From Rhizobium sp. Q54 (lineage in GTDB: Bacteria; Pseudomonadota; Alphaproteobacteria; SHVZ01), in assembly GCA_945871425.1 (NCBI GenBank), contig CAMBVS010000014.1, positions 4,497-68,496 of the forward strand: a DNA stretch of 64,000 nt. Direction: 5' to 3'. Below the pieces are notes generated by a model, which did no database searches, was not told where the DNA came from, and saw nothing but the letters and a program-made list of their open reading frames with translations. Position numbers and translations under genes: made by a program. Shown here piece by piece: positions 23,679 to 62,651 of the stretch (position 1 is the stretch's first letter; each line of letters begins with the position of its first letter).

Positions 23679-24254
23679 ATGACGCGGCGGGCCTTGCTGG
23701 CGGGAGGCTTCGCGCTCGTGGCCGCCGGCACCGCACGCGCGGACGGGCGGCCGCCGCTCGCGGGCCAGATGAAGAAGTTTACCTTGCATCCGAGCCCGCG
23801 GCCAGCGCCGGAGGCGCCGTTCAAGACCAGGGACGGCGCGGCGACAACCCTCGCCGACTTCCGCGGCCGGGTGCTGCTGGTCAACTACTGGGCGACCTGG
23901 TGCAGCCCCTGCGTCGCCGAGATGCCGTCGCTGGACCGGCTGGAGGCGGCGCTCGGTGGAACGGACTTCGCCGTCCTGCCGATCGCCTCCGACCGCGCCG
24001 GCCTCCGGGTGGTCGAGCCGTTCTACGCCAAGGCCGCGCTGAAGCGCCTGCCGATCTATCTCGACCAGGACATGAAGTTCACCCGCGGCTCCGGCGTGCG
24101 CGGGCTGCCGACCACGCTCATCGTCGACCGCGCCGGCCGCGAGGTGGGCCGCATGGAAGGCGATGCCGCCTGGGACTCAGCCGACGCCCAGGCACTGATT
24201 CGCCACTACATGGCGGAGAAGGCCGACCCGCTGGTGGTCAAGACCGGCGGCTAG
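23679..24254 (+). CDS. tlpA: TlpA-family thiol:disulfide oxidoreductase
   Basis: '[18 protein letters not shown]', 'GLPTT'; twin-arginine-like N-terminus 'TRRALL'. Confidence 0.88.
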
Positions 24255-46798: not shown

Positions 46799-46810
46799 CC
46801 GCGCCTGAGT

Positions 46811-46896
46811 GCCCCAGTGGCGAAACGGTAGACGCGGCAGACTCAAAATCTGTTGCCGGCAACGGCGTGCTGGTTCAAGTCCGGCCTGGGGCACCA
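46811..46896 (+). tRNA. tRNA-Leu(CAA)
   Basis: Acceptor GCCCCAG/CTGGGGC, anticodon arm GCAGA-CTCAAAA-TCTGT, long variable arm, T-loop TTCAAGT, encoded CCA. Confidence 0.97.
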
Positions 46897-53790: not shown

Positions 53791-54549
53791 ATGAACGAGG
53801 TCTACGGCAACACCGCCCTCGAGATGGTGACCGCATTGCGGATCCGGCGGACGGAGACCCTGGCCTCGCTGGTGCGCAAGGAACTGGAGCGCATGATCGT
53901 CTCGGGCGAGCTCAGGGCCGGCGACCGGCTGAACGAGAGCGCGCTCGCCGACCGCTTAGGCGTGAGCCGGGGGCCGATCAGGGAGGCCTGCCGCGGTCTC
54001 GAGCAGAGCCGCCTGGTCGAGGTCGTGGTCAACCGCGGAACCTTCGTCCGCCAGATCTCGCTCCAGGACGCGCTCGACATCTACGACGTGCGCTCGGCCC
54101 TGTTCGGCGTCGCCGGCGAGACGCTGGCCGCGCGCATCACTCCGCCCCAGCTCGCGACTCTCTCCGGCCTGGTCGAGGCGATGGCGCGGGCGGCCGACGA
54201 CATCGATGCCTACTACCCGCTCAACGTCGACTACCACGCCAAGCTGGTCGAGTTCTCCGGCAACGCCCGGCTGGTCACCACATATCGCAGCCTCGCCCAG
54301 GAGCTGCACCTGTTCCGCCGGCAGGGCCTGGTCAGCGAAGGCTCGATGGCAGTTTCCAACCGCGAGCACCGTGCCATCCTGGAGGCGCTGGCCCAGCGCG
54401 ATGCCGCGCGGGCGAGTACACTCATGCGCGAGCACATCCTCGCCGGCAAGAAGCGGTTGCTGAAGCTGACCGAAAGCGAACGAGCCGGGGCCGCGTCGCC
54501 GGCGCCGGACTCTCAGCGACGACGAAAACGACTTGTTGCAGGAACCTGA
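53791..54549 (+). CDS. GntR/FCD transcriptional regulator
   Basis: wHTH 'LNE..LADRLGVSRGPIREA', FCD 'N..YH...SGN..L...EH..I..AL'. Confidence 0.92.
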   Translation: MNEVYGNTALEMVTALRIRRTETLASLVRKELERMIVSGELRAGDRLNESALADRLGVSRGPIREACRGLEQSRLVEVVVNRGTFVRQISLQDALDIYDVRSALFGVAGETLAARITPPQLATLSGLVEAMARAADDIDAYYPLNVDYHAKLVEFSGNARLVTTYRSLAQELHLFRRQGLVSEGSMAVSNREHRAILEALAQRDAARASTLMREHILAGKKRLLKLTESERAGAASPAPDSQRRRKRLVAGT

Positions 54550-54589
54550 ACACAGGCCGGCGACCAACAAGACCTATGGGAGGAAGACC

Positions 54590-55579
54590 ATGCCGACGAA
54601 GACACCGACACACATCCGCCTGACCCGCCGCGCCTTCGCCGCCGGCAGCGCCGCCGCCGCAGGCCTCGCCTGGTCGCCGCTCGGCGCCCAGGAGAAGTTC
54701 CCGTCGAAGACGATCGAGGTGGTGACCCATGCCGGCGTCGGCGGCGGCACCGACATCACCGGCCGCATGATGATGGTGCATGCACCGGAAGCGTTCGGCA
54801 CCGAGTTCGCCATCGTCAACAAGGTCGGCGGCAGCGGCGCCGCGGCGTTGGCCTACGCCGCCTCCAGGCCGCGCGACGGCCACACCATCCTGCTGATCAC
54901 CCAGACGCATCTCCTGACCGTCATGCAGGGCAAGGCGCCGGTGAAGTACGACGAGATCGTCGGTCTCGCGCGTGCCACCGACGATCCCCAGTTCCTGATG
55001 GTGGGCAAGTCGAGCCCGCTCAAGACCGCCCAGGAGATGATCGCCGCCGGCAAGACCAAAGCGCTCAAGTTCGGCGTCACCCAGCTCGGCGGCGTCGACC
55101 ACCTTGCCGTCCTCGGCTTCGCCAAGAAGGCGGGGATGCAGGCCCCGACCATCGTGCCGTTCCGAGGCGGCGGCGACATCGTGATCAACACGGTCAGCGC
55201 CAATGTCGACGTCGGCATCCTCAACTACGCCGAGGCGGAGTCGCAGCTGAAGGCCGGCGACGTCAGGGCGCTGGTGACGTTGACGCCGAAGCGCCTCGCC
55301 CCGCTGCCGGACGTGCCGTCGGCGAAGGATATCGGCCTCGATATCAACTACTCGACCGTCCGCGGATTCGTCACGCTGAAGGGCGTGGCGGACGACCGGC
55401 TGAAGGCGCTCGAGGATGGCCTGCTGAAGGCGATGAAGGGGCAGATGTACGCGACATACATCGAGAGGTCGGGGCAATCCGCGGACAGCGTTGTCGGCCG
55501 TGGCCCCTGGCAGGCTCAGCTCGACGGCTTCTACAACGAGGGCCAGGCGGCGCTGAAGGAAATTGGCCTGCTGAAATAG
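54590..55579 (+). CDS. tctC: Tripartite tricarboxylate transporter substrate-binding protein
   Basis: Tat signal 'TRRAF', 'GGGTDI..R', 'N..GGSG', 'VPFRGG'. Confidence 0.88.
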   Translation: MPTKTPTHIRLTRRAFAAGSAAAAGLAWSPLGAQEKFPSKTIEVVTHAGVGGGTDITGRMMMVHAPEAFGTEFAIVNKVGGSGAAALAYAASRPRDGHTILLITQTHLLTVMQGKAPVKYDEIVGLARATDDPQFLMVGKSSPLKTAQEMIAAGKTKALKFGVTQLGGVDHLAVLGFAKKAGMQAPTIVPFRGGGDIVINTVSANVDVGILNYAEAESQLKAGDVRALVTLTPKRLAPLPDVPSAKDIGLDINYSTVRGFVTLKGVADDRLKALEDGLLKAMKGQMYATYIERSGQSADSVVGRGPWQAQLDGFYNEGQAALKEIGLLK

Positions 55580-55589
55580 CGAGCCCGGC

Positions 55590-56063
55590 ATGACCGTTCC
55601 GGGCTGGCGGAGCCGCACCGATCTCCTCGTTGCGGCGGTCATCCTCGCCTTCTGTGCGATCGTCTACGGGCTCACCTACCGCTTCGACGCCGTGCCCGTC
55701 GCGTTGATGGACGGGCTCGGCGCCGAGCTGTTTCCACGCCTGGTTCTCGGCGTGGTGGCGCTGATGGCGGTCCTGATCGCGCTCGGCATCGGCATCACGC
55801 CCATGGCCGCGCCGCCGCCGGTGCACCCGATGGTATGGATGACCGGCGGCGCCATGCTGGCGTTCATGGTCGCGGTCGAGGTGATCGGGCTATGGCCGAC
55901 CGCCTTCCTTTTCGTCGTCGGCCTCGGCTGGCTCTGGGGAGAGCGCAGCCTGCTCAGGCTCGCGCTTAGCGCCGCCGGGTTGTGCGCCGTGCTTTACCTT
56001 CTGTTCGTACGGCTGCTCGGCGGAACCTTCCCCAAGGGCCTGCTCACCTCCCTCTGGTCGTAG
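55590..56063 (+). CDS. tctB: TTT small permease
   Basis: 4 TM, 'G..LFPR', 'P.G' tail; lies between tctC and tctA. Confidence 0.85.
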   Translation: MTVPGWRSRTDLLVAAVILAFCAIVYGLTYRFDAVPVALMDGLGAELFPRLVLGVVALMAVLIALGIGITPMAAPPPVHPMVWMTGGAMLAFMVAVEVIGLWPTAFLFVVGLGWLWGERSLLRLALSAAGLCAVLYLLFVRLLGGTFPKGLLTSLWS

Positions 56064-56076
56064 GGATCGTACCCGG

Positions 56077-57564
56077 ATGGACGCCTTTTTCGCCGGCATG
56101 GGGGTTCTGCTCGATCCCTACATGCTGTTCCTGGTCTTTGCCGGCACCGTCCTCGGCATCGTCGTCGGCGCGCTGCCGGGGATCAGCGGCAGCACGACGA
56201 CGGCGCTCCTGCTGCCGCTGACGATCGCGATGACGCCGGCCGCGGCGATCGCCTTCCTCGGCTCTCTCTACTGCGCCGCCAATTTCGGCGGCTCGATCAC
56301 GGCGATCCTGATCAACACGCCGGGCGACCCCTCGGCCTCGGCCACCGCCTTCGACGGCTATCCCATGGCGGCCCGCGGCGAGGCGGGAAAGGCTCTCGGC
56401 ATCTCGGCGGTGGCGAGCGCCATCGGCGGCATCTTCAGCGTCTTCGTCCTGATCGTCGCCGCCCCGCTGCTCGCACGCATGGCCTACCAGTTCGGCCCCC
56501 CGGAATACTTCGCACTCGCCGTCTTCGGCCTCTCGATGGTGGCTGCGATCGGCGGCGACTCGCCGGTGAAGAACCTGCTCGCCGCGGCCCTCGGCGTGCT
56601 GCTGGCCACGGTCGGGCTCGACCTCACCACCGGCGTCGAGCGCTTCACCTTTGGCGCCTACGCGCTCTCCGACGGCATCGAGTTCATTCCCGTTCTCGTC
56701 GGCCTGTTCGCGATCTCAGAGCTCCTGGAGCAGGCAGCCCAGCACGGCGCCGTTCAGAGCTACATCAAGCTGAAGAAGGTCGAGCTTCCGACTCTGGCCG
56801 ACTTCCGCAAATGCGCCAAGGCGATCTCGCTCTCCAGCGTGATCGGCACTTTCATCGGCGTGCTGCCGGCGCTCGGTGCCACGACGGCGGCGCTGATCTG
56901 CTACAATGAGACCCGCCGCTGGTCGAAGCACAAGGAGGAGTTCGGCCGAGGCGCCATCGAGGGCGTCGCCGGGCCCGAGGCCGCCAACAACGCCGCGGTC
57001 GGCGGCGCCATGGTGCCGACGCTGGCCCTCGGCATCCCCGGCAGCACCACCTCGGCGATCATCCTTGCGGGCCTGATCATCCAGGGCATCCGGCCGGGAC
57101 CGCACCTGTTCACCGAGCAGCCGACGCTGCTCTACGTCGTCTTCGGCTCGATGTTCGCGGCCAACCTGCTCTACCTGGTGATGGGCCTCGGCATGGCCAA
57201 GCTGTTCGCCCGCATCGCGCTGATTCCCGCCACATATCTCTGGCCGGCCGTTTTCGTGCTCTCGGTGGTCGGATCCTACGCACCGAACCAGTCGATGTTC
57301 GATGTCTGGGTCATGCTAGCCGCCGGCGTCGTCGGATTCCTCTTCCGGCGCTACGGCTTCTCCCCGGCACCGCTGATCATGGGCCTGGTGCTGGGCAAGC
57401 TGGTCGAGGAGACGCTGAAGCAGTCGCTGCTGATCTTCGACCGGAACTGGCTGATGTTCCTGACCCGCCCGGTGGTGGTTGTGCTGTTCGCGATCACCGC
57501 GGCAGGGCTCGCCGCGCCGGCGCTCCTGCGGCTGTGGAGATTCTGGCGGGCTAGCGCAGCATGA
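56077..57564 (+). CDS. tctA: TTT large permease
   Basis: 'GALPG', 'ILINTPG', 'FDGYPMA', 'GPEAANNA', 'LGIPG'. Confidence 0.93.
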   Translation: MDAFFAGMGVLLDPYMLFLVFAGTVLGIVVGALPGISGSTTTALLLPLTIAMTPAAAIAFLGSLYCAANFGGSITAILINTPGDPSASATAFDGYPMAARGEAGKALGISAVASAIGGIFSVFVLIVAAPLLARMAYQFGPPEYFALAVFGLSMVAAIGGDSPVKNLLAAALGVLLATVGLDLTTGVERFTFGAYALSDGIEFIPVLVGLFAISELLEQAAQHGAVQSYIKLKKVELPTLADFRKCAKAISLSSVIGTFIGVLPALGATTAALICYNETRRWSKHKEEFGRGAIEGVAGPEAANNAAVGGAMVPTLALGIPGSTTSAIILAGLIIQGIRPGPHLFTEQPTLLYVVFGSMFAANLLYLVMGLGMAKLFARIALIPATYLWPAVFVLSVVGSYAPNQSMFDVWVMLAAGVVGFLFRRYGFSPAPLIMGLVLGKLVEETLKQSLLIFDRNWLMFLTRPVVVVLFAITAAGLAAPALLRLWRFWRASAA

Positions 57565-58457: not shown

Positions 58458-59048
58458 ATGACCGACCGCGCCCTCATCGAAACCTTCACGCGTGCCGTCC
58501 TCGCCGATGAGCCATCGGCGCTGATCCCGCATTTCTTCGCCCACGACATTGCGCCGCCGATCTTTCGTTGGAATCCCCAGATCGGATCCCTGGTCGAGGC
58601 GCCGCTCAAGGTGCTGTTCCGGTGGTGGCGGGAGCAGCGGGTTGCCGGCGGCATCCCGTCGGTCGACGCGGTCGACCCGCTGGCGCTCAAGGAAGCGCTG
58701 GGCTACCTGATGATCCTCGACGTGCTCGAGGACGGCTGGGACTTCCGCTACCGCCTCTACGGCAGCGAGATCGCCCAGCACGCCAAACGCGACTACACCG
58801 GGCAGCGCACCTCCGAGCTCAAGGTCGTCTCGCTGATCCCCACATTCTACATCGCCTGCTATCGGGCCGTGCTCGTGCGCCCGGAGCCGCTGATGACCCG
58901 GAACGAGCCCCCGACCGACGTCGCCACCACCACCTGGACCCGCCTGGTCCTGCCGCTCGCGGACGGCAGCGGCAGAATCGTGCGTTTCCTCGTCGGCAAC
59001 GTTCCCGGCACCTGGCGGCAGCCCACGAAAGGTGAATCCAGGAGCTGA
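58458..59048 (+). CDS. Stand-alone PAS-like (PAS_5 type) protein
   Basis: 'WW.......P....DP..L...LG.LMILDV....DFRYRLYGS', 'RLVLPL.D'. Confidence 0.7.
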   Translation: MTDRALIETFTRAVLADEPSALIPHFFAHDIAPPIFRWNPQIGSLVEAPLKVLFRWWREQRVAGGIPSVDAVDPLALKEALGYLMILDVLEDGWDFRYRLYGSEIAQHAKRDYTGQRTSELKVVSLIPTFYIACYRAVLVRPEPLMTRNEPPTDVATTTWTRLVLPLADGSGRIVRFLVGNVPGTWRQPTKGESRS

Positions 59049-59122
59049 GCGCAAGGATGGCAGGCGGCAGCACTCCACGGCATGATGCCCGCCGAGGCGC
59101 CTCTTCCTCCCGGAGTTTCCCG

Positions 59123-60121
59123 ATGCCCGATACGATCCTGCCCACCGCCGCCTGGCTGACGGCACCGGCCGACAGCCGGTGGAACCCGGAGATCCTGGCC
59201 GAAGCCTGGGCCTACGCCGCCAGCATCGACAGTTCGGCGGTCATGGTGGTGGAGGGCGGACGCGTGGTGGCCAGCTGGGGCGACGTCGAGCGTCGCTACA
59301 TGTACCACTCCATGCGGAAGAGCTTCCTCTCGGCGCTCTACGGCATCCACATCGCGGAAGGCCGCATCAGCCGCGGCACGACGCTGGCCGAACTCGGGAT
59401 CGAGGACAAGGAGGGGCTTTCCGGCCGCGAGAAGGCCGCGACCATCCTCGACCTGCTCTCGGCACGCTCCGGCATCTACCACCCGACCGTCTACGAGAGC
59501 CAGTGGATGCGCTCGATCAAGGAGCTTCGCCACGCCCGCGCGCCCGGCGTCTTCTGGTGCTACAATAACTGGGACTTCAACGTTCTCGGGTCCATCTTCG
59601 AGAAGCTGGTCGGCCGCTCGCTGTTCGACGAATTCCGCGACCGCATCGCCGGGCCCATCGGCATGCAGGACTTCCGCTATGACGACGAGCGCAAGGACGG
59701 TGAGTATGTCCACGGCGCCGAGACCGACCACCCCGCCTATCCCTTCCGCATGTCGAGCCGAGACCTCGCGCGCTTCGGCCTGCTGTTCCTCAACGGCGGC
59801 CGCTGGGGCGACAGCCAGATCGTCCCGCGCCGCTGGGTGAAGGAAAGCACGGCGCCGATCTCGGAGGCGGGCAACGCCGGCGCCTACGGGTACATGTGGT
59901 GGGTGGCGCGCGCCGGCGTCCACATCCCGGGCGTGATCCTGCCCGACGGCACCTACTCCGCCCGCGGCGCCGGCGGCCACAAGATGTTCGTCATCCCGGC
60001 GCACGACATCGTGCTCGTGCACCGGGTCGATACCGACGTGAAGGGGCGCGAGGTGAAGACGCACCAATTCGCCCCGCTGATCGATCTCGTGCTCGCCGCC
60101 CGGCTCGGGCGGGACTGGTAG
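59123..60121 (+). CDS. Serine hydrolase, beta-lactamase class C / 6-aminohexanoate-dimer hydrolase family
   Basis: SxxK 'SMRKS', 'YNN', 'SRDLARFG', 'YGYMWW', 'SARGAGG'. Confidence 0.88.
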   Translation: MPDTILPTAAWLTAPADSRWNPEILAEAWAYAASIDSSAVMVVEGGRVVASWGDVERRYMYHSMRKSFLSALYGIHIAEGRISRGTTLAELGIEDKEGLSGREKAATILDLLSARSGIYHPTVYESQWMRSIKELRHARAPGVFWCYNNWDFNVLGSIFEKLVGRSLFDEFRDRIAGPIGMQDFRYDDERKDGEYVHGAETDHPAYPFRMSSRDLARFGLLFLNGGRWGDSQIVPRRWVKESTAPISEAGNAGAYGYMWWVARAGVHIPGVILPDGTYSARGAGGHKMFVIPAHDIVLVHRVDTDVKGREVKTHQFAPLIDLVLAARLGRDW

Positions 60122-60135
60122 AAGGAGACGCAAGG

Positions 60136-61233
60136 ATGGTGACGCTTCTGACCGAACGCGGCAGTTTCGAGGTGAAGGCCCGCAGGGTCGGCGAGGATCT
60201 CTGGGTCGACTCGGACGCCCTCGCCGAGGCGACGGGCTGGGAGCTGAAGCCGGAAGGCTTCTGCCGCGACGAGGTCTGCGTGCCGCTGCCGCGGGGACGC
60301 GAGTCCGAGTTCCGCCAGGGCGCGGAAATCAACGCGGCGAAGCTCTGGCGCCATGCCGGACAGCCGATCGTCGTCAGCCGCGACGGCGAGGCCTGGTCGC
60401 TCGGCACGTCGGCAGCATTGCGCACGAGCGCGCTCGAAAGCCTCGAGGCGCCGGACGTGGCGCTGCCGGACTTGGACGGCCGCATCCACCGGATCTCCGA
60501 CCACCGCGGCAAGAAGGTCTTCCTCTCCACCTGGGCATCCTGGTGAGGCTGTCGCTTTGACTTGCCCGTGTGGCAGCAACTGTACGACGAGCTCAAGGAT
60601 CACGGCTTCATGGTGTTCGCGGTCGCGATGGACAGTCGCGGACCGGAGATCGCGCGGCCCTGGATCGAGGCGGCGAAGTCGACCTATGTGTCGGTGATCG
60701 ACACCGAGCATCGCCTGGCCGATCTCTACAACATGGTCAACGTGCCGGAGGCCGTGTGGATCGACGAGACCGGACGGATCGTGCGCCCGACCGAGGTCGC
60801 CGGCAGCGGCGACTATTTCCGCAAGATGGATCGCCAGACCAAGACGCTTCCCGAAGACGCCAAGGTCATGCGGGAAGAGATGCGGGCGCTCTACATGAAC
60901 GCGCTCCGCGACTGGGTGAGAAACGGCCGGAGGAGCAGCTACGCCTTCGATGAGTCCGCCGCGCGCTGCCATGTGCGTCCGCAGTCGGAGGACGTGGCGC
61001 TCGCCCATTGCTGGTTCCGGCTCGGCCGGCACCTCCATGCGGCCGGCAAGCTCGACGAAGCGGAGGCGGCCTTCGCCGAGGCGAGCCGCCTTCACCCGGA
61101 CTCCTGGAACATCTGGCGCCAGATGGGCGACATCAAGCACCAGGGCCAGCCCAATCCCGAGTTCTGGGCACGGGTCGAGACGCTGGGCAACCGCCGCTAC
61201 TACGGCAAGATCGACATGCCGGGCATGCCGTGA
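60136..61233 (+). CDS. Selenoprotein: ResA/TlpA-like thioredoxin-fold protein (WASW-U-GC) with C-terminal TPR-like helices; Sec at codon 137
   Basis: The ORFs ending at 60546 and starting at 60562 are in the same frame; TGA 60544-60546 occupies the first Cys position of the redox motif; SECIS-like hairpin follows. Confidence 0.85.
60548..60593 (+). promoter_or_regulatory. Putative bacterial SECIS element
   Basis: Apical stem TTGCC/GGCAG with loop CGTGT starting 20 nt after the UGA; lower pairing TTG/CAA, GTCG/CGAC, GCT/AGC. Confidence 0.6.
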
Positions 61234-62651
61234 CCCCTCGGGCGTCCGTACCCGAGGTCGCATGGACGGAGCTGGCATCGGGTACGGCCGACGATCTCGA
61301 CGGCTCGTCCGTCGAAATCGCCGGCTGGCTCCGCCCGGTCGAGGAGGGCACGCGGCGGGGCTACGCCCTGCTGGTGCCGGATTCGCTTTGCTGTGCCGGC
61401 TGCGCGCCCGTCGACAGGCGAACCACCGTCGAGGTCCTCTTCAAGGGGGGCCTCGCGTCCTTCCCAGGAGAGGCACGGCTCGCCGGTACGCTTCGGCGGC
61501 TGCCCGATGACGACCCGGCCGGGTGGCGCTATCAACTCCGCGACGCCACCCTCCTCGCTGCTGCGCCATCCGTCAGCGTGTTCTCTCGGCGGGCGCTCCT
61601 CGGCGCCGGACCGCTTCTCTGCCTGGCGGCGACCGCCCCTCGCGCCGTCCAGGCCCAGGCTGACGACCTCGGCGACGCCCGCCGGGTACTCGCCGGCGCG
61701 CTCACCATCGATATCCATTCCCATGCAGGCCGCGCCGTCGGCCGCACGCATCCGGCGTTCACCGCCGTCGCCGCGCCGATGCGCGACGGCGCCATGGCGA
61801 CGATCTGTCTCGCCATGGTTGCGGATACGCCGACGCTCGAGCTCACGCCCGATCGCCGCATTCGGTCGATGCGCGAGCCGGAGCGGGGCGAGCTCTACCA
61901 ATGGAGCCGCCGCTCCTTCGCCCGGCTCGCCGAGCTGGTCGCGCACCAGCAGCTCGACGTCGTCACCGATCTCGCCTCGTTGAACGCCTCTCCCCGGCGT
62001 GGCCCCTCCGCCATCATCGCCGCCGAAGGCTCCGATTTCCTCGAAGGCCGGATCGAGCGGTTGGAGGAGGCCTATCGCGAGCACCGGCTCCGCCACCTGC
62101 AGCTGACCCACTACCGGGTCAACGAGCTCGGCGACATCCAGACAGCCACGCCGGTTCATGGCGGCCTCACCGAATTCGGCGTCGAGGTGGTCCGCAGCTG
62201 CAACCGCATGGGCATCGTCGTCGACGTCGCCCATGGCACCCTCGACCTAGTCAAGCGCGCCGCCACGGTCACCACCAAGCCGCTGGTGCTGTCGCACACC
62301 TCCCTCGTCAACCGGCCGGCGCTCTTCAGCCGGCAGATCTCGCCGGATCACGCGCGCATCGTCGCCGGCACCGGCGGCGTCATCGGCATCTGGCCACCCT
62401 CCGGCATCTTTCCCGACCTGACGGCGCTCGCCGGCGGCATGGCGCGCACGGTCGACGTCACCGGCATCGACCATGTCGGCCTCGGCACCGACATGAACGG
62501 CCTCACCGCACCGCCGACCTTCTCCAGCTATCGCCAGCTGCCCGACCTCGCCGCGGCTCTGATGGCGCGCGGCTTCCATGCCGAAGAGGTCCGGAAGCTT
62601 CTCGGCGGCAACTACGCCCGGGTGTTCGCGGCGACCGTCGCACATTCGTAG
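61230..62651 (+). CDS. Membrane dipeptidase (M19) fused to an N-terminal Cys-rich DUF3299-like domain
   Basis: GTG overlaps the upstream stop; 'DIHSH', 'AEG', 'LTHY', 'VDVAH', 'SHT', 'HVGLGTD'; N-terminal 'LVPDSLCCAGC'. Confidence 0.82.
   Translation: MTPRASVPEVAWTELASGTADDLDGSSVEIAGWLRPVEEGTRRGYALLVPDSLCCAGCAPVDRRTTVEVLFKGGLASFPGEARLAGTLRRLPDDDPAGWRYQLRDATLLAAAPSVSVFSRRALLGAGPLLCLAATAPRAVQAQADDLGDARRVLAGALTIDIHSHAGRAVGRTHPAFTAVAAPMRDGAMATICLAMVADTPTLELTPDRRIRSMREPERGELYQWSRRSFARLAELVAHQQLDVVTDLASLNASPRRGPSAIIAAEGSDFLEGRIERLEEAYREHRLRHLQLTHYRVNELGDIQTATPVHGGLTEFGVEVVRSCNRMGIVVDVAHGTLDLVKRAATVTTKPLVLSHTSLVNRPALFSRQISPDHARIVAGTGGVIGIWPPSGIFPDLTALAGGMARTVDVTGIDHVGLGTDMNGLTAPPTFSSYRQLPDLAAALMARGFHAEEVRKLLGGNYARVFAATVAHS

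Follow-up and report, generated by a model that had tools for sequence, protein, structure and literature searches.

Known UGC-containing selenoproteins and a member in Rhizobium sp. Q54

A family of selenoproteins listed as 'Prx-like (UGC-containing)' has been in print since 2008 (PMC2398784). Published accounts give 46 selenocysteine (Sec) and 855 Cys sequences for it in GOS, and more in non-marine samples. NCBIfam holds a family named 'ResA-like WAxxUGC motif-containing protein' (NF041054, an equivalog), and motif and domain alone suggest that the two are one family. The gene described below has in common with the catalogued family the WAxxUGC motif, a single Sec, pfam00578 as best Pfam match, many Cys homologs, and non-marine or freshwater sources. 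Here we describe a member of this family in a 64,000-nt stretch of Rhizobium sp. Q54 (contig CAMBVS010000014.1, positions 4,497 to 68,496 of the forward strand; hereafter the window). Positions 60136-61233 of the window very probably encode, as one functional gene, a cytoplasmic selenoprotein of 365 residues that belongs to the UGC-motif, ResA/TlpA-like family (NF041054). With Sec entered as Cys, the product scores 308 bits against the NF041054 cut-off of 300 (E 9.3e-92) and covers profile positions 5-353 of 354.

A first-pass annotation, made by a model from the letters of the window, had pointed to a computationally defined, ResA-like WAxxUGC family; the family exists, and its curated cut-off is passed. 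The gene thus belongs to a family that is already catalogued in NCBIfam and in print. The printed descriptions, in the excerpts available, cover motif and domain and do not describe a three-domain architecture, an invariant CxxxxC, or a hairpin consensus. Possibly new is the invariant CxxxxC, which lies in an N-terminal domain that lacks a clear structural relative. Literature searches under the family names WAxxUGC and ResA-like selenoprotein returned no matching paper, and 'UGC' is not mentioned in PMC5029168.

The gene and its principal elements are as follows.

60136-61233, forward strand: the whole selenoprotein gene (365 codons and the terminal TGA), assigned to NCBIfam NF041054 (WAxxUGC_long)
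60122-60127, forward strand: Shine-Dalgarno-like AAGGAG, 8 nt 5' of the ATG, read directly
60544-60546, forward strand: UGA codon 137, read as Sec, where the thioredoxin fold has its N-terminal, attacking redox residue
60550-60552, forward strand: Cys139, second residue of the U-G-C centre and putative resolving residue, invariant in the 18-sequence family alignment

The reading frame runs from ATG 60136 to TGA 61231-61233 and contains a single internal TGA, codon 137; the upstream gene ends at TAG 60119-60121. With this TGA read as U, the surrounding residues are KKVFLSTWASW-U-GCRFDLPVWQ. The active-site motif W133-A-S-W-U137-G-C139 matches W-A-x-x-U-G-C, with U encoded by TGA. It is of the UxC type (U-G-C), with one residue between the redox residues, and is not a CxxC. 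Under translation table 11, the frame is cut into two open reading frames (ORFs), 59896-60546 and 60562-61233. The first-pass annotation had joined two ORFs through the UGA into one 365-residue frame, had read the motif as UxC rather than CxxC, and had placed the TGA at the attacking Cys of a TlpA/ResA fold. The coordinates and the ORF split were reproduced, U-G-C is read at codons 137-139, and the placement agrees with the structural matches given next.

The thioredoxin fold of the protein resembles those of ResA, TlpA, and DsbE. Foldseek matches reach E ~1e-11, with TM ~0.8 to ResA. Alignment by VIA gives DsbE 3gl3 (Z 15.4, rmsd 2.1, 140 aligned), ResA 2f9s (Z 14.5, rmsd 2.2, 137 aligned), and TlpA 1jfu (Z 12.2). 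The W-x-x-W-[C/U] lead-in and a conserved proline (Pro204 here) are shared with ResA, TlpA, and CcmG(DsbE). However, these proteins carry CxxC, and the UxC found here has one residue fewer between the redox residues. They are also extracytoplasmic, whereas the present protein has no signal peptide or membrane anchor and has extra N-terminal and tetratricopeptide repeat (TPR) domains. Its scores stay far below the respective NCBIfam cut-offs for ResA (67.2 vs 170), TlpA (52.7 vs 230), StoA (45 vs 210), and DsbE (22.5 vs 123).

A likeness to peroxiredoxins (AhpC/TSA, BCP/PrxQ) is also seen, since AhpC-TSA is the best Pfam match and peroxiredoxin structures align at Z 11-12. The peroxidatic signature of these enzymes is given as PxxxTxx[C/U] in the excerpted text of PMC13188914. 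This signature is absent here, where Leu130 stands at -7 and Ala134 at -3 from U137 (L130-S-T-W-A134-S-W), and PrxQ-type NCBIfam scores are negligible. A third likeness is to CnoX/YbbN-type proteins, which are cytoplasmic and have a thioredoxin fold followed by TPR helices, an arrangement for client binding. They belong to another thioredoxin subtype and have neither the N-terminal CxxxxC domain nor Sec. This likeness is one of general description; no sequence or fold match to CnoX/YbbN appeared in the Pfam, NCBIfam, Foldseek, or VIA lists.

Conservation of the UGA and translation beyond it

The gene was compared with 10 other genomes of the same genus; the assembly carrying the window is referred to as G000. 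Orthologs with 76-89% identity are present in nine of these 10 genomes. Each has one internal TGA, and the column is shared by all nine (context TWASW*GCR). In the tenth genome (G009), both flanks of the locus lie at contig ends, which leaves an assembly gap over the gene. A wider family scan, taking one genome per species, gave 27 loci, 26 of them with the motif. The first-pass annotation had proposed a search for homologs with Cys or TGA at codon 137, and both were found: the codon is TGA in 16 and TGC in 10 of the 26 loci, across three phyla. The TGA loci come from alphaproteobacterial metagenome-assembled genomes (MAGs), plus a single record with the title Deltaproteobacteria and a single MAG of Acidimicrobiales. 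The TGC loci come from one alphaproteobacterial MAG, an Acidimicrobiia MAG, MAGs of Frankiales and other Actinomycetota, and Nocardioides taihuensis. The in-frame UGA aligns with Cys codons in homologs, and Cys is the sole replacement observed among the loci with the motif.

Substitution rates were computed against five orthologs: over codons 1-136, dN/dS is 0.23-0.41, and over codons 138-365 it is 0.18-0.25. Both halves of the gene are under purifying selection. The low value downstream indicates that the part after the TGA is translated in the same frame.

These data bear directly on the possibility that the TGA is a nonsense mutation or a sequencing error and that the locus is a broken Cys-type thioredoxin-fold pseudogene. 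Table 11 does give two ORFs, and selA, selB, and tRNA-Sec were not detected in G000 (see below). However, the same TGA stands in all nine assembled orthologs, which come from different species-level genomes, and in 16 of 26 family loci in three phyla. The dN/dS past the TGA is 0.18-0.25, and a second TGA selenoprotein gene is kept in 11 of 11 genus genomes. On the conservation of the TGA and on dN/dS we reject a pseudogene or sequencing error, to which we assign a vanishingly small probability. Reassignment of TGA to Trp or Gly was also rejected: the stop codon of the gene itself is TGA, and homologs have Cys in the column.

The only proteobacterial Cys form (the member called L065) lies inside the Sec clade as sister of a Sec form, L064, with tree support 97/94. 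The tree thus places one Sec-to-Cys conversion on the L065 lineage. L065 (620-1720) and L064 (3961-5061) are 61% identical and make a natural Sec/Cys sister pair.

The family is widespread. A profile search over 1.84 billion representatives found 389 proteins at E<=1e-30, and the best 150 of the 389 were inspected. Among these 150 are 43 W..WC.C forms, 38 of which read CGC, and about 19 more with close motif variants; CGC is found in 38 of the 45 W..Wx.C representatives of the inspected set. The 150 also include 41 C-terminal halves that start directly past the UGC position and four N-terminal halves that terminate in W..W. Half-proteins of this kind are the signature expected when gene callers split Sec genes. 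Two representatives differ at the Sec/Cys position, with Ser in P0003 (WASWSEC) and Arg in P0149 (WASWRGC).

The half-proteins could also be taken at face value. The locus would then make two proteins, a 136-residue N-terminal product ending at the TGA and a C-terminal product restarting at TTG 60562 or GTG 60568. Start-like codons do follow the TGA, and gene callers emit such halves (41 C-terminal and four N-terminal, as above). However, the codons between the TGA and TTG encode G-C-R-F-D-L, which holds the invariant G138, C139, and R140, and in the structure model the strand-helix unit of the active site straddles the TGA. Moreover, Cys forms are single chains of equal length, and no evident Shine-Dalgarno sequence lies 5' of 60562. 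We reject a split gene on account of the continuous fold and of the invariant residues that follow the TGA before any start codon is reached, and we consider separate products extremely improbable. The single selenoprotein gene remains the preferred reading. Table-11 gene callers split this gene, and dozens of its halves stand in public protein sets. As a result of these split calls, a conserved selenoprotein is under-reported in this freshwater alphaproteobacterial group.

A conserved hairpin downstream of the UGA

Bacterial UGA codons are read as Sec with the help of a Sec insertion sequence (SECIS) in the mRNA. A compact hairpin and a wider context were delineated here.

60562-60576, forward strand: candidate SECIS hairpin UUGCC / CGUGU / GGCAG, based on conservation, synonymous suppression, and a SelW-like counterpart
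60544-60595, forward strand: extended SECIS context, a weak prediction from minimum free energy folds, with lower stems 60544-60547/60592-60595 and 60550-60554/60585-60589

The hairpin has a 5-bp stem, in which 60562-60566 pair with 60572-60576, and is capped by the loop CGUGU at 60567-60571. The stem starts 15 nt and the loop 20 nt past the UGA. The first-pass annotation had the hairpin beginning 20 nt after the UGA; this is right for the loop, but the stem begins at 15 nt. The spacing used by bSECISearch is about 16-37 nt from the UGA to the loop. The SECIS loop pattern, G then U early in an apical loop shortly after the UGA, is present. That a CGUGU-loop hairpin fits the SECIS pattern had already been noted in the first-pass annotation, and comparison across the family upholds it.

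All 17 of the 17 Sec forms, which comprise 12 distinct sequences, keep the stem intact, with 5-6 of 6 counted pairs. In contrast, the stem is interrupted in eight of nine assessable Cys forms, L065 included, although the peptide there is nearly identical. In L065, synonymous changes in Leu, Ile/Val, and Gln codons disrupt the hairpin. Stem position 19 alternates between U.G and C-G among Sec forms. The outermost pair is a C.C mismatch in eight of the 12 distinct Sec sequences and C-G, U-G, or U-A in the remaining four. The Acidimicrobiales Sec form (L071) has the loop GGUCU, which keeps N-G-U-N-N. Paired cells amount to 88.9% at the hairpin, compared with 30-49% when the partners are slid. Synonymous variation is also suppressed. 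Within the genus, synonymous variation touches three of the 14 invariant degenerate codons that lie between 137 and 153, whereas outside this stretch it touches 127 of 190 (Fisher p=0.001). The sliding-window minimum of synonymous variation falls at codons 137-151. A small hairpin with an N-G-U-N-N loop after codon 137 occurs in the UGA forms alone.

Several results weigh against a SECIS function of this hairpin. Covariation is weak: both sides change in one of 15 pairs, and the observed score is matched by 147 of 500 shuffles. The stem largely encodes the conserved residues L-P-V-W-Q. Folding energies are ordinary, with z = -1.5 for 67 nt and -0.75 for 40 nt. In the 40-nt fold, a competing stem (60549-60554 with 60571-60576) takes the same 3' arm. 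An actinobacterial Cys form, L080 (4001-4963), has a perfect 6-bp hairpin at the same place (GCUUCC/CUCGU/GGAAGC), which may be chance or a relic. An Rfam scan of 60300-60900 found neither SECIS nor another relevant family at E<=10. In the predicted extended lower helix, pair counts showed no pair with changes on both sides. Support for the hairpin comes from conservation and the contrast between Sec and Cys forms, not from thermodynamics.

The same genome carries a SelW-like (Rdx) gene of about 70 residues with the motif C-S-S-U (L099:1501-1689, reverse strand, equal to G000:C78:11381-11569). The TGA of this gene is kept in 11 of 11 genus genomes, including G000 and the small assembly G006. 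It is followed by the hairpin CCCUC/CGUGC/GAGGG, 21 nt past the UGA, in the same geometry and with nearly the same loop. The two genes share a 5-bp G+C-rich stem and a 5-nt loop C-G-U-G-Y located 20-21 nt past the UGA, whereas their proteins are unrelated; the SelW-like protein is small and has Sec at the C-terminal position of CxxU. Because this near-identical hairpin follows another UGA of the same genome, the small hairpin is favoured over the competing stem.

Sec machinery of the genome

G000 is an assembly of 3.56 Mb in 100 contigs and is 82.8% complete; relatives are about 5 Mb. The first-pass annotation had suggested looking for selA, selB, selD, and tRNA-Sec, and this search gave a divided answer. 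selD is present (301.5 bits). It lies on contig C63 (L016:1378-3564, reverse strand) and encodes a 729-residue fusion of a Pyr_redox_2 (Ndh-like) domain with SelD. In its excerpted text, PMC2398784 reports the Ndh-SelD arrangement for aquatic bacteria. Also on the side of the Sec trait, selenouridine synthase was not found in G000.

The remainder of the search weighs against Sec decoding in this strain. selA was not found in G000 (best 60.8 bits vs the cut-off of 267.9), nor was selB (115.2 bits vs 242.25). tRNA-Sec was not found in G000 either, where the hits of the model are tRNA-Ser and tRNA-Leu according to ARAGORN, and a whole-genome ARAGORN run on G000 returned no tRNA-SeC. One of these weak model matches (36.3 bits) lies in the window at 46809-46894, forward strand (G000:C14:51305-51390), and is tRNA-Leu(CAA) by ARAGORN. 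The first-pass annotation would have abandoned the Sec reading if the genome lacked Sec machinery and the TGA was unique to the strain. Of these two conditions, the first applies to the assembly G000 insofar as selA, selB, and tRNA-Sec were not found, although an assembly gap is the likelier reason; the second does not apply, as nine of nine assembled orthologs carry the TGA.

The relatives show where the missing genes would be expected. selA, selB, and tRNA-Sec stand side by side in G008 (C1 67129-70495) and also in G004, G003, and G002. selA is present in nine of the 10 genus relatives. The one relative in which selA was not found, G006, is like G000 a small assembly (77% complete, 3.3 Mb), and it retains both TGA genes. 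Synteny between G008 and contig C63 of G000, which carries selD, stops about 40 nt short of the contig end, and the sel cluster of G008 lies about 5.5 kb past that point. About 17 kb of G008 around the cluster are covered by no G000 contig. The evidence points to, but does not prove, an assembly gap rather than a clean deletion as the reason why selA, selB, and tRNA-Sec are missing.

A genuine loss would have different consequences. The UGA would then either terminate translation or be read inefficiently by a near-cognate tRNA (Trp or Cys), and the gene would be heading to loss or Cys conversion. The three missing components and the uncovered 17 kb are compatible with such a loss, and one lineage (L065) did convert Sec to Cys. 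However, selD is intact, and two TGA selenoprotein genes with intact hairpins are retained. The end of C63 near the synteny limit, with the sel cluster about 5.5 kb further in G008, fits an assembly break. Furthermore, the only other genus genome without selA is a small assembly that keeps both TGA genes. We therefore regard loss of the machinery as very improbable, and retain the reading of a functional selenoprotein gene whose decoding genes were probably left unassembled. The case illustrates how, in an incomplete MAG without assembled selA, selB, and selC, UGA genes that are kept and have a hairpin in common allow the Sec trait to be inferred.

Ten AhpC-TSA matches are found in G000, and a TGA occurs in the gene at 60136-61233 alone. 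One of the others lies in the window at 23802-24158, forward strand (G000:C14:28298-28654). This TlpA/AhpC-TSA-type gene has no TGA (PF00578, 47.4 bits) and is an ordinary Cys paralog.

Domain architecture of the protein

An AlphaFold model was built from 18 family sequences with 33-82% identity and reached a pLDDT of 92.7 and a pTM of 0.90. It has three parts: residues 1-101 form a beta-rich N-terminal domain, residues ~104-220 make up a thioredoxin fold that helix 240-266 closes, and further helices follow towards the C-terminus.

60136-60438, forward strand: beta-rich domain at the N-terminus (about residues 1-101) that holds the invariant Cys43 (60262-60264) and Cys48 (60277-60279)
60445-60795, forward strand: ResA/TlpA/DsbE-type thioredoxin-fold domain, about residues 104-220, from Pfam, fold matches, and invariant columns
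60853-61185, forward strand: C-terminal helical region, about residues 240-350, with modelled helices 240-266, 285-302, 306-319, 324-335, and 342-349

Codon 137 falls between strand 127-133 and helix 138-156 of the model. The thioredoxin fold matches the Pfam domain AhpC-TSA (PF00578) at residues 104-216 (2.4e-15, 57 bits vs the cut-off of 26), and Redoxin is also matched. Columns invariant in the 18 sequences include C43, C48, W133, W136, U/C137, G138, C139, R140, D189, H192, P204, W208, D210, and E211. The invariant Pro204 (60745-60747) is probably the cis-proline of the thioredoxin fold. At the C-terminus, a TPR unit at residues 290-332 scores 29.1 bits against the TPR_14 cut-off of 23.5, which bears out the TPR part of the first-pass annotation.

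In the N-terminal domain, Cys43 and Cys48 form a CxxxxC inside the motif ATGWxLKPEGxCxxxxCVP, and 34 of 37 assessable full-length representatives have this CxxxxC. The domain itself matched no Pfam or NCBIfam family. When it was folded alone (pLDDT 88.9), no Foldseek match at E<=0.001 was found. With VIA-align, 5h3k_A came out best (Z 5.8, rmsd 3.8, 91 aligned), whereas usher N-domains reached Z 4.1-4.7 and beta-grasp proteins Z 2-2.6; all these values lie within the VIA background range, below the level common for unmatched models. On these models, the domain appears to have no clear structural relative; we name no fold for it and do not claim a new one.

No signal peptide or membrane segment was found: the maximal Kyte-Doolittle mean over 19 residues is 0.71, and it is -0.04 over the first 40 windows. 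In the model, the N-terminus is a confidently folded beta strand (pLDDT 94). Both results agree with the earlier suggestion that the protein has no visible signal peptide and is probably cytoplasmic. Three full-length Cys forms (P0010, P0012, and P0022) have N-terminal extensions that resemble signal peptides or lipoboxes. Judging from these extensions, part of the family may be exported.

Proposed decoding and function

By the established bacterial pathway, SelB with Sec-tRNA(Sec) would bind the hairpin on the translating mRNA and insert Sec at UGA 137. The TGA at 61231-61233, which has no such hairpin, would terminate translation. The current picture of Sec decoding is unchanged by these findings. 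Sec137, located at the N-terminal end of thioredoxin-fold helix 1, would be the nucleophile that attacks a disulfide, another electrophilic sulfur, or a peroxide. Cys139 might then resolve the adduct as a selenenylsulfide, which would form the UxC centre. Cys43/Cys48 are a candidate internal redox partner, and the C-terminal helices with the TPR may serve as a surface on which a protein partner docks. The attack step follows from the position of Sec in the thioredoxin fold; the remaining steps are conjecture. From thioredoxin-fold chemistry, the activity is most likely a cytoplasmic (seleno)thiol-disulfide exchange.

A more specific proposal is a three-domain cytoplasmic machine. In such a machine, the CxxxxC would work with U-G-C either as a four-residue relay or as a Se/S-ligated metal or metalloid site, while the TPR region holds the client. 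We put this forward tentatively and think it rather unlikely in this form; if true, it would be a new type of UxC/CxC oxidoreductase. The arrangement of CxxxxC with UxC and the pair of L064 and L065 offer handles for a first biochemical study, in which L065 would be a ready-made control.

Genomic neighbourhood

The gene is surrounded by those for a GntR regulator, TctCBA, a PAS_5 protein, a beta-lactamase-family hydrolase, and an M19 dipeptidase, and this order is syntenic within the genus only. An all-versus-all comparison of 19 loci found no common neighbour beyond alternative-frame shadows of the gene itself, and no neighbour is conserved outside the genus. Without shared neighbours, the context gives no functional lead. 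A scan of 58900-61800 for promoters and terminators returned no sites.

Upstream in the window, at 53791-57564 (forward strand), the tripartite tricarboxylate transporter genes tctC, tctB, and tctA come after the gene for a GntR/FCD regulator. The beta-lactamase-family serine hydrolase gene (59057-60121, forward strand) ends 14 nt before the selenoprotein start. It adjoins the selenoprotein gene in all genus loci and in no more distant locus, and a genus-level operon of the two genes is possible.

Downstream, about 470 nt (61234-61700) lie between the stop of the selenoprotein gene and the conserved M19 dipeptidase core, compared with about 125-180 nt in relatives. This stretch had no tblastn match in 25 loci. 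An inverted repeat CCTCGGG...CCCGAGG lies at 61236-61257, directly 3' of the selenoprotein stop. The frame leading into the M19 dipeptidase carries a twin-arginine-like signal, SRRALLGAG.

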